From IMG/VR virus record IMGVR_UViG_2728369593_000011: a stretch of 21,675 nt of DNA. One strand, given 5' to 3'. Origin of the DNA: a virus. Its lineage: Duplodnaviria > Heunggongvirae > Uroviricota > Caudoviricetes. Shown here piece by piece: positions 12,144-21,675 of the stretch (within the stretch, counting starts at the first letter, position 1; the number at the start of each line of letters is the position of its first letter). The notes beneath the pieces are model-generated. The model saw only the letters and a program-made list of their open reading frames with translations, did no database searches and was not told where the DNA came from. Position numbers and translations under genes: made by a program.

Positions 12144-12160
12144 TTTCAAAAGTGTAAATC

Positions 12161-12197
12161 AGAACCACTCGTATAGCGGGTGGTTCTCTGTTTTATT
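12161..12197 (+). terminator. Rho-independent terminator (plus strand)
   Basis: agaaccac (12161-12168) / 11-nt loop / gtggttct (12180-12187) followed by ctgttttatt. Confidence 0.5.
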
Positions 12198-12259
12198 CGT
12201 GTTGCGACTAAAACTAACTAAAATCACGCATATGAAAGATAATGGGAAAATTATCGCTA

Positions 12260-12697
12260 TCATCGAAGGCATTGCGTCCTAATGTACTCCTGCAAGTAGT
12301 TAACCTGCGCGGTTATCCTGTCGATTCCACTTCGGAGACGGTAATAATTGAGTTCAGCATCTGCTGTAAGTCCTGGGGTTTCTCCATTGCCCATGCCGCT
12401 GGCTCCGGTCGTTGACTTTGCACAGGTGGCGGCGACTTGCAGGCGCTTACGCCCAGCAGAAACATCAGCACGGAGACTTTCGATAGTCGCATTAGCATCA
12501 GCAAGCTCCTTTGTGTATCTGGCGTCAAGTTCTGCTACATCACGTTGCCGCTTCTGCATATCAGCGATGATGGATGTGGCTTTATCGCGCTGCTCTTTGT
12601 AGGCGATGGCGTTATCACGGTAATGATTAACAGCCCATGAAAGGCAGACGATGAGGCAGATGACCAGAACGTAGATAATCGCGGTTACTCTGCTCAT
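12260..12697 (-). CDS. Rz: Spanin inner-membrane subunit Rz
   Basis: ATG at 12697: [39 protein letters not shown]...[16 protein letters not shown]... resembles lambda Rz; overlaps the endolysin stop (ATGA). Confidence 0.9.
12313..12498 (-). CDS. Rz1: Spanin outer-membrane lipoprotein subunit Rz1 (embedded in the +1 frame of Rz)
   Basis: [61 protein letters not shown]: lipobox, proline-rich segment, embedded in Rz as in lambda. Start codon uncertain. Confidence 0.7.
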
Positions 12698-13192
12698 TGT
12701 TGCCCCCACAAACAGACTTCACGCTCAATCTCACGGCGAGTCATCAGCCCTTTCCATTGCTTACCGCCAGCGTATGTCCAGCGCCGTAGCTGATCACATG
12801 CGCCTTTGATATCGCCCTGGTTTATTTTGCGAAGTAAGCGTCGATGTTCTGAAATTGCCAGCGCCCACGTTGTAAACGAACGAGTAAAGAGCGCCGCGCG
12901 TTGTTTCCGGTATATCGACTTTGATGTACGGGTTTATTTGTCTGGCGACCGTGGCAAGGTCTTTATTCAGGAGGGCTTTGCATTCTGCTTCGGTATACGT
13001 TTTACCGGGCATGATGTCTTTTCCGGTGTGTCCGTGACATACAGTCCATACGCCAACGATATCTTCGTATGGTATGTAGCTGACACCTTCCAGGCCATCG
13101 TCACCACTCGGACCAGTGATGAGCACAGACGCTATGGCAACAGCCCCACCACCAATAGCAGCAGCAACAGCCTTGCGTAATGACGGAGACAT
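12694..13192 (-). pseudogene. R: SAR endolysin (phage 21 R-type lysozyme) with 1-bp insertion near 12835
   Basis: N-terminus [61 protein letters not shown]... matches the P21 SAR endolysin pattern. After ...[12 protein letters not shown] the track frame ends ([13 protein letters not shown]-stop at 12794), while the adjacent frame reads [47 protein letters not shown]-stop (12694). Confidence 0.85.
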
Positions 13193-13400
13193 TATTCACC
13201 TCTCGCAGCCTTACGCTTATCTTCTTTAATCTTGAAATAAAGATTTGTCAGATACGTCAGCAGGCCAAACAGCAGACTCCCCAGCACACCTATTCGCCAC
13301 CCACTGGGACGGAGAGACTTTGTCCAGCAGCTGCAGTAACCAGTACTCCCGTCCCCACCGCTGACGTGGTGTATGACACACCTGTTGTGATTTTTTCCAT
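13192..13400 (-). pseudogene. S: Pinholin (phage 21 S-type class II holin) split over three frames (two indels)
   Basis: From ATG 13400: frame 0 [14 protein letters not shown]..., frame +1 [18 protein letters not shown], frame +2 [33 protein letters not shown]-stop. Together these follow S21 ([42 protein letters not shown]...KIREDRRKAARGE). TAATG overlap with the endolysin start; GGAGA RBS. Confidence 0.75.
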
Positions 13401-13440
13401 CTGATGTATGTCTCCGTCACCGCCGACAGAAAATGAAAGT

Positions 13441-13481
13441 AAAGAAAAACAAAAAAGCCGCCAGTGTCACCCACTGACGGC
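13441..13481 (-). terminator. Rho-independent terminator-like hairpin upstream of the holin (minus strand)
   Basis: Minus-strand GCCGUCAGU-GGGUGAC-ACUGGCGGC (one mismatch in stem) followed by UUUUUUGUUUUUCUUU. Confidence 0.45.
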
Positions 13482-13656
13482 CAACGCCGGGAGCCGTGAT
13501 TATGGCATTCAGGCTCTGCTAAAAATGCCAGATAACATTCCGGCCAACCCCTGATTCAGGTTATAAATGACACAATATCTTGACAACATCCGTCACTGTC
13601 TGTCAGAAAATGTACTGCCAAGTATAAGTATCATGTGAAGTACATCTACCCGTTTT

Positions 13657-13692
13657 AGCCAGCGTCCTTCAGAGTGGGCGCTGGCTTTTTTT
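13657..13692 (+). terminator. Rho-independent terminator oriented on the plus strand, abutting the nanS-p stop
   Basis: agccagcg (13657-13664) / 14-nt loop / cgctggct (13679-13686) followed by T-run to 13692; on the minus strand it lacks a U-tract. Confidence 0.45.
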
Positions 13693-13693
13693 A

Positions 13694-15548
13694 TTATGAT
13701 GCCGGTGCATTTATCTCCAGCACCAGACTTTCTATCTCAACGCCATACGCTGCATTTTTTGTAACATCCGTCAGCGTCAGCGCATTCAGTCCCAGTGTCA
13801 GACTGTCTTTTATAACCTGGAATGCCGGGCCAGCCACTCCATTCAGTTTCGGAGTAACCGTGGCACTGCCGGCGGTGAACACCAGCTCCGAGCGTCTGCC
13901 AGTCGTTACCGTAATCGCCGAACTCCCCCAGCTTCGTGTTTCCGGCTTTCCTGTCGATGCATCAGATTCACTCTGCCGTCAGTGGTCTGAGTGAAGTACG
14001 ACATCAGGAACGGATTACCGGTACCCGTCATCGCCACACCATCAGGAACGGGAGCATCCGTATACAGATAAATCCCCAGCCCGAACTGATTGTTGGTCAG
14101 TGCGCCTGACAGGCGGAACTTACAGGTCAGTCTGCCGCCCTGTGTCAGCAGGGTAATTGCGTCATCCACCGGATGCGTCAGGGACCAGGTTTTATTGCTC
14201 TGCTTGGTGATCTTAAATACACCATCTGACAACTGAATTCCGCCATCCTTAATGCTCCAGCCCTGCGCAGCAGCATCTCCGGCTGTCGGCAACAGGGAGA
14301 TTGTGCGTACGGATGCATCTTCAGACGGCCCCGATGGCGTGTCGCCGCCGGGCGAGGGTTTGATTTCCGGTGCCTTACCACTAATGAAGGCTAAGGTGCG
14401 ACCGGCTACGTTCAGAATAGCAGTTGCCATACGATCGGGAATAATGCCACGACGCGCCCATGAGCTGAAATGCGTCGGGCGATTTGATGATACCCAGTTT
14501 TTGTTCGTTCGGGATGCCGAACCGTAATAACCAGACCCGGCAATATCAGGATCTTCTGACGGGTTGTTTGTCGGTGTATTAACTCCGCTACCATCGGTCA
14601 TAAAGGGAACAAAATAAATCTGCTGGGATTCTTTACCTTTATATGCACCATATACCACTTCATATTGCGTACCGTGTTCTTGTTTCCACGCGTATGTCGT
14701 GTCGCCACAAAGTCCAGGGGACTGATGCCGGACTTCCACCGTCGACACTGCGCCGCCAGCCCGGCAAGGTCAGCACGGAACTGCTGTACCATTGCAAGAA
14801 ATGCTGCTGGCTGCTGGGCGTAACTGGCATTCGTCATATCGAATTCCCCCTGCATCCAGCATATCGCCAGCAAAACGTTTTTCGGGTTTTTCTGCAATGC
14901 TGCCTTCGTGCGGAAAAGCAGATCCTGATATAACGGCTTACCCACTCCCCAGCGAGCCGAATCCTGACTGGCCCCCGTGGACTCGCTGAATGTCCCCTCC
15001 GTGCCCTGGGTGAATGCCGAACCACCACGACAGCATGGTACCAGCAGGATCCCCGCGTTATTCGGGATATACGGGAGCAGTTTTTTGGCAATATGTAAAC
15101 CCTGGCCGACACAGCCGTACTGCCCTTTGCTCAGGTCAGCCCTCGGATGATTCAGCGTACTCATATCCTGCACATCATGCAGACAGTGGTCAGCCGGAAT
15201 AATATCGTTATATCTGCAGGCAGCCCCGCCCGGCGTCACTGTACTGCGGCGCGCCAGCTGTTTAATGCGCGGATCCGGAGCATCGTATGAATCCGGCAGC
15301 GGAAGCCCTTCACCGTAAGCCATGGCATTGGATTGCCCGGCCAGTACGATGACGTAGTACCAATCCGGCTCAGATGAAGGGCCGACCTGTGGCTCTCCTT
15401 CAATAGCCACCGCCTGCATCAGTGTGTACGGCGTAATGGCAACCGGTCCGCCGTATGGCTGCCAGCCCTCTTTCAGTTTGTGTGTCAGCTTTTCCGCAAG
15501 GTCTGACGGCGACGCCGCCCTGACAACATCGTAATGTTTAATCGACAT
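13694..15548 (-). pseudogene. nanS: Prophage-type sialate O-acetylesterase (NanS-p-like), fragmented by at least two frameshifts
   Basis: Track ORF 14598..15548 has a prophage NanS-p-like N-terminus (MSIKHYDVVRAASPSDLAEKLTHKLKEGWQPYGGPVAI...) and an esterase motif VIVLAGQSNAMAYGEG. The protein continues in another frame (13906..14748, ...TTYAWKQEHGTQYEVVYGAYKGKE...) with a junction near 14700, then in a third frame (13694..13882). GGGAGAAA RBS before ATG 15548. Confidence 0.7.
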
Positions 15549-15634
15549 CGAATTTCTCCCGTGTAGAGGAACAGAGTTAAAAAGCCGGAAGCGGAATCAA
15601 ATCACAGGATGACCATCTGCCAGTGGCAGGTCAT

Positions 15635-15663
15635 AAAAAAAAAGGCTAGCGCAATGCGCAGCC
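15635..15663 (-). terminator. Rho-independent terminator (minus strand) between the cargo block and nanS-p
   Basis: Minus-strand GGCUGCGC-AUU-GCGC(U)AGCC (8-bp stem with 1-nt bulge) followed by UUUUUUUUU (plus-strand A-run 15635-15643). Confidence 0.5.
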
Positions 15664-16092
15664 AGAACTCACAAGGAAAATGATAAAAGGAATAACACTA
15701 GTGATGTACGCATGGCGCCTCCCGCTAAGTTCTGCAATGATCAAACAGAACTCGCTACGTGCCCTTAAAACTCGATCATTTAGCCCCTCCAAGGAGGATT
15801 CACCATGCGGTTGATTTTTTAATAAACAGTAAACAAAAAAGTCAAGAATTATTCATTCTGTTCTTTCATCATCGGCCACAGCAATACCACAATGCCGCAG
15901 ACCAGAGCGCCATCAGTCAGTACCAACATTATCCTGCTGGTGAAATCCATCATCACCATCACTAAAAGCAGGATCACAACAGCAAGCAGACACAGTTTAT
16001 AAAACAATGTTCAGAAAACGCATTCAGCATGCCTAAGGTTCTATTCCTACGAATAGCCAACTTGCAACTTAAAATATTATTTATGCAGCCAA

Positions 16093-16335
16093 TTAAATTC
16101 TGGTCCTTACAATATCAACCTGAAGATTCTTATCTTGTGCTGATTGATAAATGACAAACCTTTTACTACCTGCATTGAAAGAAGTAGACAAAACCAGACA
16201 ATTATCATAACGAGCAAGAACATAATACCAACCATCATTATAATTAATCATTTCATATTCTTTCTTAAACTGCGGTTTGTAATATCCTGTCAGAAATGAA
16301 AAAAGCCAAAAATATGCCACAAAAGCAATCATCAC
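16093..16335 (-). CDS. Hypothetical protein (80 aa), probable C-terminal continuation of the upstream membrane protein across a homopolymer frameshift
   Basis: ORF (V)MMIAFVAYFWLFSFLTGYYKPQFKKEYEMINYNDGWYYVLARYDNCLVLSTSFNAGSKRFVIYQSAQDKNLQVDIVRTRI begins 5 nt after the previous ORF's stop, one frame offset. Confidence 0.4.
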   Translation of the reverse strand: MMIAFVAYFWLFSFLTGYYKPQFKKEYEMINYNDGWYYVLARYDNCLVLSTSFNAGSKRFVIYQSAQDKNLQVDIVRTRI

Positions 16336-16339
16336 AATC

Positions 16340-16852
16340 TCAAAAAAAATGTTTTTTTATAAATGGCTTATCATAGAAGCATGATACCGATAAAAATCGC
16401 CCATAAGATCTTATCGAAATTGTAACCGCCAGCGCAATCGCTGCTGACAGTAGCAAAAGAGGTACCTGAATCTTCTGTCTCAATATAGAAAACTCAATAA
16501 TTGCCGGCACAAACAATAATTCCACAGCAAAATAAAGGCGAAATACATTTAGCTCTTGCATAGAATGTTTTCTTTTCACTGCGAAAAAGAATACAACACC
16601 AATACCCCAACCGATAAGAAATATAGCAATGACGATAACTGCAAAAAATAAACTTCTGGCAACATCATCAACACCTGCACCTACAATCCACCATGGGAAG
16701 CCGTAGTAAAAAGAAGTACCCCATCCATAGAAATAAGCACTCCCCCATCCAAGGCATCCCATGTAGGCAATAAAAAGTGAAGAACTCCTGAGCAGCGCAC
16801 CATCCTTCATAACCACCCCAATACAAGATGATAACATTGGCTTACAACTCAT
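16340..16852 (-). CDS. Hypothetical polytopic membrane protein (AT-rich cargo gene downstream of PR'/tR')
   Basis: 170-aa ORF rich in aromatic and hydrophobic segments (...GWGSAYFYGWGTSFYYGFPWWIVGAG..., ...FFAVIVIAIFLIGWGIGVVFFFAV...). Likely start at ATG 16810 (MKDGALL) preceded by GGGGTGG. Ends at a TGA inside an A7-CA-T8 tract. Confidence 0.5.
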   Translation of the reverse strand: MSCKPMLSSCIGVVMKDGALLRSSSLFIAYMGCLGWGSAYFYGWGTSFYYGFPWWIVGAGVDDVARSLFFAVIVIAIFLIGWGIGVVFFFAVKRKHSMQELNVFRLYFAVELLFVPAIIEFSILRQKIQVPLLLLSAAIALAVTISIRSYGRFLSVSCFYDKPFIKKHFF

Positions 16853-16949
16853 AACAAAAGCAATTCAATGCCGTCAAGAGGTTACAGGCTAAAAAAACTC
16901 TATTACATAGCAGCCAGCATGTTTACCGTACAAGTACAACTCAGGGCAT

Positions 16950-16977
16950 AAAAAAAACCCACTCGGCAGCGGGTTTA
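16950..16977 (-). terminator. tR'-like rho-independent terminator downstream of Q
   Basis: Minus-strand AAACCCGCU-GCCG-AGUGGGUUU (9-bp stem with one G-U pair) running into a U8 tract; about 50 nt downstream of the predicted PR' start. Confidence 0.6.
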
Positions 16978-17009
16978 TACATTTTTTACAACATACCAAA
17001 TTTGCATGA

Positions 17010-17038
17010 AGTATATGGCTTTTAATCCAGTTTTGCAA
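17010..17038 (-). promoter_or_regulatory. PR'-like late promoter (sigma70 -35 TTGCAA / 17-bp spacer / -10 TATACT) overlapping the 3' end of Q
   Basis: On minus strand: TTGCAA (plus 17033-17038), 17-nt spacer, TATACT (plus 17010-17015). Position matches lambdoid late promoters. Confidence 0.4.
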
Positions 17039-17711
17039 TATTTTGCTGTAAAAATGCTGCCTTTTGTTTTGAACGTGTTCTCGTCACAAGCAATAAAGCA
17101 TCACTATCAAGCTGTAGAAAAATGTGCTTCATTGCAACCCAGCGTTCAGTAAATGTCTCGGACCAGTTTTTTGTTGTCACTCCCACCAATGATGCCAGTG
17201 TCTGGTATTCATAGGCCTCACGCCCTGCAAGTTCGCTCTTCACATCCTGTGCAGCCAGCCAGATTAACGTCTTCAGGCGATCCAGTGTCTTACCTGCAAT
17301 TTTTCTGTTACTTAACAAATCTTTAAACTCGCTCCATGCCCATTGCGTTATGGTGACCTGATGCCCCCATCGAACGCTTTCGCTGTAACACCAAAGCAAC
17401 CATGCTTTCTGATGTTCATCGAGAGACAAAACCGCGCGGCGCCATGAAGAGGTTGAGAATTCAACCGGGCTGACCAAAGCAATGGATGAACCTTTTGCGT
17501 ACGACTGCTTACCGGAAGTCGGCGTATTATCCAGCGTAATCATCTTGCCAGTTACCACATCCAGAATGCGCGGCTTCTTTCGTTTGTATGTACCAGTATC
17601 AAATTGTGCATGCTCCTGCCAGGCTTCGAGCTGGCCTTTCGTTGCTCCGTTCAAGTCAGCAGTAGCTGCCATAAGTTGCTCACGAACATACTGTAAATAT
17701 TGGGTATTCAT
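17022..17711 (-). CDS. Late-gene antitermination protein Q (not lambda-Q or Q21 type)
   Basis: 229 aa from ATG 17711 (MNTQYLQYVREQLMAATADLNGATKGQLEAWQ...LDEHQKAWLLWCYSESVRWGHQVTITQWAWSEF...) with AAAGGA RBS. Sits between the rusA/ylcG nin genes and the lysis cassette, with promoter and terminator immediately downstream. Family call is from context and recalled annotations. Confidence 0.7.
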   Translation of the reverse strand: MNTQYLQYVREQLMAATADLNGATKGQLEAWQEHAQFDTGTYKRKKPRILDVVTGKMITLDNTPTSGKQSYAKGSSIALVSPVEFSTSSWRRAVLSLDEHQKAWLLWCYSESVRWGHQVTITQWAWSEFKDLLSNRKIAGKTLDRLKTLIWLAAQDVKSELAGREAYEYQTLASLVGVTTKNWSETFTERWVAMKHIFLQLDSDALLLVTRTRSKQKAAFLQQNIAKLD

Positions 17712-18184
17712 GCAGTAAATCCTTTCTATATTTTGGCATAATTCTTCAACATTCGGTAATCGTTCAAAACCGAATCGGGGAAACGACATAAGCACAGGAG
17801 CCCCCAGCGACAGCGAAGGAGTTCTGATATATAAGACTCAGACATCATTCATTCCCCGGTTCTCCAATATCTGTTTCACTCATCATCCATAACTACCTGT
17901 AATTGCCCCCCTTTTTTTGTAACAGTTCTTATATTGCTATATAGAATAGCCATTACTAATGCTTTTAAATTTAATAAAATAAAAATTATAAAAAACATAA
18001 AACACCACGCAAACACACTTAATAAAAACACCGTTACATTAAAAGATAATAAAAACCGCAATAAAAAACGAATAAATCAATTGTCTCACGCAATTATAAA
18101 ACATCATATTGATTACGCACCTTGTATTACAAACTCATGTATGTAAAATACGCGCACCATTCAAAAAAAGGAAGACAATAACAT

Positions 18185-19147
18185 ATGAAAAAAAGTGTCA
18201 TCGCTGGCGTCTTTATTGCTCTGTCATTTACCACGTGTTCAGCTATCGCGAACAGCCTTGCATTATCATTAGCAAATGATGATGCAGGGAAGTTTCAACC
18301 AATACTTAATGATATTTATGGCAATAAACATGAAAACAGAGATGATTACTCACAAGGCTTATTTCTGGGATATAGCCACGATATCTCAGACTCGAGCCAA
18401 TTATCTCTCCATATTGCGCAAGATATTTACTCTCCATCAGGCAGTAATAAAAGACACAACACAGCTGTAACTGGAGACAGAGCTTTTAGTGCATACACTC
18501 ACACTGGTATTGAATGGAACTCCCTTGCGAATGACTGGATTCGCTATCGATTAGGTACTGACATAGGTGTTGTTGGCCCCGACGCAGGCGGTCAGAAAGT
18601 ACAAAATAAAGCTCATGAGATTATTGGGGCAGAAAAATATCATGCATGGGATGATCAAATAGAGAATCGCTACGGTTATACTGTAAAAGGGATGCTATCC
18701 ATGACACCAAGTATGGATATTTTAGGTGCTAATGTTGGATTATACCCTGAAGTTTCTGCTGTTACTGGAAACTTATTTCAATATGTAGCATATGGCGCAA
18801 CCATTGCCATTGGTAATGATAAAACCTTCAATTCGGATAATGGCTTTGGTCTGCTGGCTCCCCGTGGTTTAATGCATATGTCCGATACAAGCGGATTCAA
18901 ATACAAGATTTTTGCAGGTATGGAAAGACGAGATGTCAATCGCAACTATACTCTCGAAGGAAAAACAATACAGACGAAACAAACAACAGTATCGCTAAAC
19001 AAAACTGTTGATGAATATCAAGTTGGCGCAACAATTGGGTATGCACCTGTAGCCTTCACACTAGCATTTAATAAAGTAACATCAGAATTCAAGACAGGGG
19101 ATGACTATTCATTTATAAATGGAGCAATCACCTCTTTTTTTAACTGA
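18185..19147 (+). CDS. lpxR: Outer-membrane lipid A 3'-O-deacylase LpxR-like protein
   Basis: 320-aa ORF with signal peptide MKKSVIAGVFIALSFTTCSAIA. Counting from the predicted mature N-terminus (NSLALSLANDD...), N9, D10, S34 and H122 fall on the LpxR active-site positions as I recall them (Asn9, Asp10, Thr34, His122). AGGAAG RBS; AT-rich codon usage. Confidence 0.65.
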   Translation: MKKSVIAGVFIALSFTTCSAIANSLALSLANDDAGKFQPILNDIYGNKHENRDDYSQGLFLGYSHDISDSSQLSLHIAQDIYSPSGSNKRHNTAVTGDRAFSAYTHTGIEWNSLANDWIRYRLGTDIGVVGPDAGGQKVQNKAHEIIGAEKYHAWDDQIENRYGYTVKGMLSMTPSMDILGANVGLYPEVSAVTGNLFQYVAYGATIAIGNDKTFNSDNGFGLLAPRGLMHMSDTSGFKYKIFAGMERRDVNRNYTLEGKTIQTKQTTVSLNKTVDEYQVGATIGYAPVAFTLAFNKVTSEFKTGDDYSFINGAITSFFN

Positions 19148-19175
19148 ATTGAATTCAATCAAAATAACATAAGTC

Positions 19176-19226
19176 CAACAAAAACATAAAGTGCGAAATG
19201 AATGCCAGCTCCATTTATTTCGCACT
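19176..19226 (-). terminator. Stem-loop with minus-strand U-tract between ylcG and lpxR
   Basis: agtgcgaaat (19190-19199) / 17-nt loop / atttcgcact (19217-19226); on the minus strand followed by UUAUGUUUUUGUUGG. Confidence 0.4.
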
Positions 19227-19369
19227 ATAAAAGATTAAAAGTTGCAATAAAATAATAAAATGACTCAGTTACGAAAACCAATAAACTGTGGCCAGTAGTG
19301 AGTCGCTCATCATCGGGCTTTTTGGCGAATGAAATTTAGCTACGCTTTCGAGTCTCATCGTCTTCCCCT

Positions 19370-19504
19370 CTATCCTTTGCAATGACACCACACTTCAAAC
19401 ATTCGTTTCACAACCTCACGACAGTAGAAGCCGTAAGCATCGCGGGTAAGATCGTAGCGATTGCCATAACGCTGGCGCATATATCGTTCGAATGCTTTGT
19501 TCAT
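19370..19504 (-). CDS. ylcG: Small nin-region protein YlcG-like (44 aa)
   Basis: MNKAFERYMRQRYGNRYDLTRDAYGFYCREVVKRMFEVWCHCKG; ATG overlaps the rusA stop (ATGA); position after rusA as in DLP12-type prophages. Below the track cutoff. Confidence 0.6.
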   Translation of the reverse strand: MNKAFERYMRQRYGNRYDLTRDAYGFYCREVVKRMFEVWCHCKG

Positions 19505-19863
19505 GTGTTCTCCAGTTCGGTGATTTTTATTCCAAGCCTTCCGCCTGGTACTTTCACACCACGAATTACGCGAATGTCATCGAATTGCTCGTCGTCTTCC
19601 GCAAATCCGGCGTGGATAAGGGAGTCGAGTAAACCTTTCAGGATGTTGTCGAGGTCGCGGCGGCGGGAGTCTGGAACGTCTGCGATGACTTTGATACGGA
19701 GTCGTGATTTGGTGAAAATGTCTAACTTGAGTTGGCGAATGATTTGCTGAACGTCTTTTCGGTATTTCTGGCCTTTATCGCTGATGTAGTATTGGCTTCC
19801 CCGTCTTCGCCAGTAGGTGTTCACCGACGGCGGGTATGGAAGCACAAACTGATATTCGTTCAT
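19501..19863 (-). CDS. rusA: Holliday junction resolvase RusA
   Basis: 120-aa ORF MNEYQFVLPYPPSVNTYWRRRGSQYYISDKGQKYRKDVQQIIRQLKLDIF...IKVIADVPDSRRRDLDNILKGLLDSLIHAGFAEDDEQFDDIRVIRG... with RusA motifs. Confidence 0.9.
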   Translation of the reverse strand: MNEYQFVLPYPPSVNTYWRRRGSQYYISDKGQKYRKDVQQIIRQLKLDIFTKSRLRIKVIADVPDSRRRDLDNILKGLLDSLIHAGFAEDDEQFDDIRVIRGVKVPGGRLGIKITELENT

Positions 19864-20150
19864 GGCTTAATCTTCCCCTCCTTCAGCAGTATCGCCTGCG
19901 TCCTGATCACGCCTTCGAGGTGGTAAAGTCTGGCGTCTTTGTTGTCGAGGTTATGGGTGCGTCGGTCGATTTCATCGTGACACGCGCTACAAGCCCCATG
20001 CGCCGATCAGGTCGTCAGGCTTCATTCCCGTTCCGCAAATTCCAGCCATCCGGTAATGTGCCAGAACTGTAGTTTCAGGGTTGCCATTGCATACGCCGTA
20101 AATACGTACCTGGCATTCTCTGCCGCGAGCTTCTTTGCGTAGGTTAGCCA

Positions 20151-20151
<1 letters not shown>
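19860..20151 (-). pseudogene. ybcO: YbcO-like nin-region protein (DUF1364), 1-bp insertion near 19991
   Basis: From ATG 20151: MANLRKEARGRECQVRIYGVCNGNPETTVLAHYRMAGICGTGMKPDDLIGAWGL-stop; the adjacent frame continues CSACHDEIDRRTHNLDNKDARLYHLEGVIRTQAILLKEGKIKP-stop, overlapping the rusA ATG. Confidence 0.65.

Positions 20152-21675
<1,524 letters not shown>

Follow-up and report, generated by a model that had tools for sequence, protein, structure and literature searches.

Frameshifts in the holin and endolysin genes of a P21-type prophage lysis cassette are most likely errors in a draft contig

When a prophage record shows a holin gene and an endolysin gene that are both frameshifted beside intact spanin genes, has the phage lost lysis, or does the record misreport it? 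The question is raised by the window, by which we mean the whole 21,675-bp stretch of DNA analyzed here, which exact look-ups identified as the entire NCBI draft contig AKYH01000002.1 of assembly GCA_001605745.1. In phage 21, the pinholin S depolarises the inner membrane, upon which the membrane-tethered SAR endolysin R is released and activated, and the Rz/Rz1 spanin disrupts the outer membrane as the last step. Taken at face value, the record retains the spanins and the head genes and has lost holin and endolysin, which makes for a tempting domestication story. Our analysis favors a more prosaic answer: with a probability of roughly 88%, the frameshifts that interrupt S and R, three in all, stem from faulty base calling or a faulty consensus in the draft contig and are not mutations of the phage.

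The lysis cassette of this E. coli prophage consists of the following genes:

13400 to 13192, minus strand: holin S (P21-type class II holin, or pinholin), 68 aa once two extra bases are removed
13192 to 12694, minus strand: SAR endolysin R (R21/RrrD type, GH24), 165 aa once one extra base is removed
12697 to 12260, minus strand: Rz, the inner-membrane spanin subunit, 145 aa, intact
12498 to 12313, minus strand: Rz1, the outer-membrane lipoprotein spanin subunit, 61 aa, intact and called as a gene

The cassette is an ordinary lysis module of the known P21/RrrD type. In Pfam comparisons, the repaired S matches PF04971 ("Bacteriophage P21 holin S") with 112.1 bits against a curated cut-off of 26 bits and covers profile positions 1-63 of 64, while the repaired R matches PF00959 with 155.9 bits. 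Residues 1-165 of R also align on residues 1-165 of two solved proteins, 4ZPU (RrrD; E 4.9e-108) and 3HDE (a 165-aa lysozyme; E 3.6e-107). Near its N-terminus, residues 8-27 are 60% Gly/Ala/Ser and of moderate hydrophobicity, and E35, D44 and T50 are all present, which we take to be the Glu-Asp-Thr triad in the numbering of the R21 literature. Rz (PF03245, 119.9 bits) has a hydrophobic N-terminal segment, and a lipobox-like LLGVSA-C can be read in the sequence of Rz1 (PF06085, 72.5 bits). The R stop and the Rz start overlap as ATGA, and Rz1 is wholly nested in Rz in the +1 frame. The same gene order and overlapping stop/start signals characterize the S21-R21-Rz21/Rz1 cassette of phage 21 and its prophage copies, such as essD-rrrD-rzpD of DLP12, with which the window shares the PF04971 holin, the full-length RrrD-type endolysin and the nesting of Rz1. 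In lambdoid and Stx prophages, such copies are annotated as "class II holin / lysozyme RrrD / lysis protein". At the DNA level, the window cassette is 97-99.5% identical to cassettes in many E. coli genomes and in many Stx phages, where it is also found, and matches occur in 5228 of 5426 complete E. coli genomes at a median of 3 and a maximum of 17 places per genome.

Apart from three extra bases, the only respect in which the window departs from phage 21-type cassettes is that its holin has a single Met, as S21 presumably has two starts (M1 and M4) yielding holin and antiholin. The S allele of the window begins MEKITTG, no in-frame upstream start codon was found close to S, and the dual-start motif is absent. 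A Kyte-Doolittle scan identifies a single strong segment at residues ~33-55, with the N-terminal segment below 1.0 throughout, a profile that would fit a weakly hydrophobic, SAR-like TMD1 followed by a strongly hydrophobic second segment. This allele is widespread, being encoded on 982 contigs, and the single start is a property of the shared allele and not a defect of the window.

The frameshifts themselves can be located to the base. The intact reference cassette of E. coli FDAARGOS_1059 is 99.5% identical to that of the window and comprises 1298 bases against 1301, the difference being exactly three extra bases in the alignment. The identical three were found in comparison with two related loci, L002 and L006, the latter being AASATZ010000065.1, which is 99.87% identical to the window across 13.2 kb:

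13346, in S: extra plus-strand C in CCAGTA[C]TCCCGT, unlike both of its neighbors
13295, in S: extra plus-strand C in CCTATT[C]GCCACC, placed by alignments
12835, in R: extra plus-strand T in GCGAAG[T]AAGCGT, placed by alignments

The first-pass annotation, made from the sequence alone, had described a P21-type cassette with S struck twice and R once, and the alignments agree with it down to the coordinates, each of the three bases lying within one of the intervals it had singled out as suspect (12830-12840, 13290-13315 and 13335-13360). Its description of Rz/Rz1 as intact and nested was likewise correct. Rz shows 100% identity to WP_000092312.1, annotated as a lysis protein in L002, and occurs in exact form on 368 contigs, and there are zero DNA differences from L006 anywhere in Rz/Rz1. 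As written, the S reading frame is interrupted by its two +1 insertions, which are 51 bp apart, and stops after 36 aa, 18 of them native, whereas R is interrupted by a single +1 insertion and stops after 132 aa, 125 of them native.

All three bases are private to the window. In addition to being missing from L001, L002 and L006, the base at 13346 is missing from all 43 other alleles aligned there, that at 13295 from all 81 and that at 12835 from all 85, the last being matched by no relative; a rare T/C polymorphism does exist at the position adjoining 13295. Within a collection of ~15 billion proteins, the 36-aa S product is absent and the truncated 132-aa R product occurs on the contig of the window only. 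Once the extra bases are deleted, the exact 68-aa S is found on 982 contigs and the exact 165-aa R on 36. Programmed frameshifting was rejected as an explanation, since inspection of the sequence around 12835, 13295 and 13346 shows no slippery run and none of the 43-85 other alleles per site is shifted.

Similar lesions are found elsewhere in the contig. Relative to relatives of ~99.9% identity, the window carries about 12 private single-base insertions, and translated comparison with annotated relatives revealed frame breaks in the major capsid gene E, nanS-p, a 247-aa membrane protein and a DUF1364 protein. Each frame break was pinned by DNA alignment to the best reference for its segment, and two further insertions lie in non-coding DNA:

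3240..4266, minus strand: major capsid gene E, broken by an extra base at 3677, GATGA[C]TATTC
13694..15548, minus strand: nanS-p type SASA/DUF1737/DUF6645 esterase gene, with extra bases at 13890, 13955, 14712 and 14743
15643 and 15648: two extra bases in non-coding DNA, placed by alignments, the first in an A run and the second in GGCT[A]GCGC
16093..16837, minus strand: gene for a 247-aa membrane protein, with an extra base at 16342 in an 8-base A/T run
19860..20151, minus strand: DUF1364 gene, with an extra C at 19994 that turns a C3 run into C4

The base at 3677 is missing from L002 and L006-L009, and L093 and L095-L097 encode an unbroken 341-aa capsid protein; the repaired 341-aa form is found on at least 1000 contigs and the 200-aa fragment on the contig of the window only. 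In nanS-p, which sits upstream of S, deletion of the four extra bases, which are matched by none of the relatives, yields a single 616-aa ORF. The 316-aa product as written is confined to this contig among ~15 billion proteins, and an exact look-up with the repaired 616-aa protein gave no match. The extra base at 16342 is missing from all 19 of 19 relatives, and the repaired 247-aa protein, like the repaired 96-aa DUF1364 protein, is on at least 1000 contigs. The truncated 165-aa membrane protein (16340-16837) is also present on 30 other contigs, where it is listed as "partial", which hints that the A/T run is either prone to natural slippage or repeatedly misassembled; the insertion at 16342 may be natural. 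The products of intact neighboring genes are shared more widely than the frameshifted ones, with exact copies on 4 contigs for portal, 7 for terminase, 368 for Rz and 956 for the tail-tube protein.

The most instructive feature of these lesions is their mutational signature. The events in well-matched sequence comprise 12 insertions and zero clean single-base deletions. Because 9 of the 12 inserted bases differ from both of their neighbors, the insertions are not slippage duplications. Acridine-type frameshift mutagens act in base runs; they were considered and rejected, as the insertions here lie mostly outside such runs. In comparison with relatives of 99.87-99.95% identity across 8-13 kb, all of them independent assemblies, the sole indels are the +1 insertions of the window, and more of these emerge when nanS-p and the early region are each aligned to their best references. 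Across ~19 kb (378-19,400), no private substitution was detected against ~90 related loci, every base left unmatched by all of them being an inserted base. With the frameshifts set aside, these genes show no other damage, and deletion of the extra bases restores proteins that exist exactly on 982 contigs for S, 36 for R and at least 1000 each for E, the 247-aa protein and the DUF1364 protein. Hundreds of thousands of E. coli assemblies contain no second instance of the frameshifted products (R-132, nanS-p-316 and capsid-200). The pattern matches a correct sequence to which spurious bases have been added, not decay, and we infer from these comparisons that the extra bases are of technical origin.

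The substitutions that do separate the window from its closest relatives all fall within two patches, five in terminase A (9100-9388) and seven at the S/R junction (13169-13243). Both patches look like recombination rather than errors, as the versions found in the window exist exactly elsewhere.

The element to which these genes belong has nonetheless suffered real damage. The left end of the contig (1-467) is ISEc13 (IS4 family, 99.4% identity), which interrupts the tail assembly chaperone gene G after codon 79, at about 455, and the same junction is present in NKAF01000070.1 (L007), an independent assembly. Since the junction is shared, the prophage is truly defective in this lineage. At the right end (20894-21675) lies IS100 (IS21 family, istA), which is 99.4% identical and without indels. 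Two other features of the region may be mentioned in passing. The minor tail gene U (1426-1851) is a 141-aa allele with an 8-bp difference from L002 at 1501 that changes the C-terminus and makes U overlap V; it occurs on two contigs only, those of the window and L007, and is probably a real lineage variant. A gene for an LpxR-family lipid A deacylase (18185-19147, plus strand) forms opposite-strand cargo between the Q and ninH/rusA regions, and a one-base difference at 19132, near its end, results in 320 vs 319 aa.

Given a defective prophage, one could suppose that the frameshifts are genuine and very recent pseudogenisation, in which the late genes, S, R, E and nanS-p among them, drifted unselected after ISEc13 had destroyed G. 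That the G::ISEc13 interruption is real and common to another assembly is in keeping with this scenario, as is the IS100 at the other end; moreover, the insertion at 16342 lies in a homopolymer and its truncated product recurs on 30 other contigs, such that this one event could be natural. The signature speaks against the scenario. In bacterial mutation-accumulation experiments, indels arise about one-fifth as often as substitutions and fall mainly within simple repeats (PMC5854121); at that ratio, the chance that ten private events would all be indels is ~2e-8. Neutral decay should have left several-fold more substitutions than indels, yet zero were seen against at least ten private insertions. 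Natural +1 events are duplications in runs, which 9 of the 12 here are not, and deletions are entirely lacking. Furthermore, L007, which shares the G::ISEc13 junction, retains an intact capsid gene, and the truncated products have no counterpart in the hundreds of thousands of other E. coli assemblies. The lesions of genuine pseudogenes should be inherited by clonal relatives and come with other neutral changes, whereas here the lineage relative has an intact capsid gene and the window has zero private substitutions. Parallels to the cryptic lambdoid prophages DLP12, Rac and Qin do exist, as these also have an IS-interrupted structural gene and moron cargo, for which the window has counterparts in G::ISEc13, the IS100 at its early end, the LpxR-family gene and nanS-p. 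However, real cryptic prophages exhibit deletions, IS insertions and substitutions that are common to clonal relatives, whereas the frameshifts of the window are private and consist of insertions only. We therefore regard pseudogenisation as quite improbable.

Where the insertions fall along the contig is also informative. They are highly clustered: 11 of the 12 lie within 12.8-20 kb, with one or fewer in the left 12.4 kb (P = 0.0003), and seven fall within 1.9 kb (12835-14743; scan P ~0.002). In the 707 bp of the lysis region named in advance, three or more insertions would be expected with P = 0.007, given 12 in 20.5 kb. It had been noted previously that the A-B-C region is free of indels, and this was borne out, as the A, W, B and C genes retain their full length and positions 3678-12834 align without an indel to four relatives. 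There are also no indels in the IS segments at the contig ends (~1.2 kb). A uniformly low quality of the contig does not account for the data, as neither 3678-12834 nor the terminal IS segments contain indels and the errors cluster.

The first-pass annotation had offered two readings of this clustering. According to the first, lysis was lost selectively. This would amount to domestication, by which killing of the host is avoided while spanins and head genes are kept. The concentration of two hits in S and one in R at P = 0.007, next to intact Rz/Rz1 and A-B-C genes, is in keeping with that reading. It does not withstand a wider view of the contig, as four of the seven clustered insertions are in nanS-p, and the capsid gene, the membrane-protein gene, the DUF1364 gene and non-coding DNA are struck as well, all of these lesions being private to the contig. 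In addition, a second lesion in an already dead S plus four in nanS-p are unlike selection for loss, and, aside from the lesions, the affected alleles do not differ from functional ones. We accordingly consider selective loss of lysis an exceedingly improbable account of this locus.

The second reading, that of an error-prone region that exists in several copies, fared considerably better. The part of the window that is rich in insertions, Q-nanS-p-S-R, is the most repeated part of the prophage within E. coli genomes: the lysis cassette occupies 3.7 places per genome (median 3, up to 17) vs 1.6 (median 1) for A-C. In the closest relatives, short-read contigs break off at 10.4, 11.5, 12.5 and 13.7 kb, which is the mark of a repeat boundary, so the insertions cluster where the prophage is most repeated and where the contigs of its relatives break. 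Together with the non-slippage insertions, the zero private substitutions and the exact known proteins restored by repair, these observations support an origin in the assembly.

A more specific version holds that the contig is a chimeric collapse of paralogous prophage copies, with insertions arising where differing reads were forced into one consensus. The nanS-p gene provides a reason to entertain it. This gene is a mosaic of two allele types, resembling L010/L011 outside ~14200-15020 and L012 inside, and across 2.8 kb no complete E. coli genome of the 5426 exceeds 94% identity with this combination; a homology search restricted to 90%-cluster representatives reached at best 93%. The repaired 616-aa protein is also without an exact match anywhere, and the region is multi-copy. 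The mosaic may have arisen either through rare natural recombination or in a chimeric assembly. Set against collapse are that nanS-p genes are naturally mosaic and that the insertions lie away from the mosaic breakpoints. A merger of two paralogous alleles that differ by a SNP, with both bases written into the consensus side by side, predicts an inserted base equal to a known variant at a neighboring position; with 43-85 alleles per site, only 13295 fits, i.e. one of five testable sites. Positions 12835, 13346, 13890 and 13955 do not, and merged polymorphism was rejected as a general mechanism. Chimeric collapse thus seems somewhat unlikely as the particular route, and it is in any event a sub-case of the error explanation and no true rival to it.

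The interpretation we prefer, an error in the record, can be summarized as follows. Single spurious bases would have been added to the consensus of AKYH01000002.1, and the errors would concentrate in Q-nanS-p-S-R, of which E. coli genomes carry several near-identical copies. Because of these copies, this stretch is the hardest to assemble and polish. Beneath the errors, the true sequence most likely encodes an intact, ordinary P21-type lysis cassette. Short-read assemblies rarely yield random insertions. Both ends of the contig lie in IS elements, as is typical of short-read assemblies, which counts against the error reading, and so does the freedom of the ~1.2 kb of terminal IS sequence from indels. 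The true defectiveness of the prophage in its lineage counts against it as well, as relaxed selection on the late genes is thereby plausible. A full-text literature search for AKYH01 and GCA_001605745 found no paper. Gene-fragmenting indel errors are a recognized problem of draft assemblies (PMC12007338), and the window resembles draft or under-polished assemblies in that isolated single-base indels, private to one assembly and more frequent in repeats, disrupt genes that are perfect in all other respects, and the reference protein returns on repair (PMC12007338). In the residue of long-read polishing, homopolymer deletions are more usual, whereas the window has insertions only, most of them outside homopolymers.

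Were the extra bases real after all, which we judge highly improbable, a prophage crippled in G would have gained roughly twelve +1 insertions of the non-slippage kind, and not a single substitution, over a very brief period. This would imply an unusual, localized process that generates insertions and is concentrated in the late-promoter-proximal nanS-p/lysis segment, silencing lysis by chance. Such a process might be error-prone repair, or mutagenesis linked to transcription, at a late operon with high expression. If the bases are spurious, the consequences are more practical. Assembly GCA_001605745.1 is unfit for calling pseudogenes, and "frameshifted lysis genes" in multi-copy lambdoid regions need confirmation at the level of the reads. 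Candidate artefacts can also be assessed without reads by asking whether the lesions are private, whether they consist of insertions only, whether they are of the non-slippage kind, whether they occur without private substitutions, and whether their repair yields exactly a known protein.
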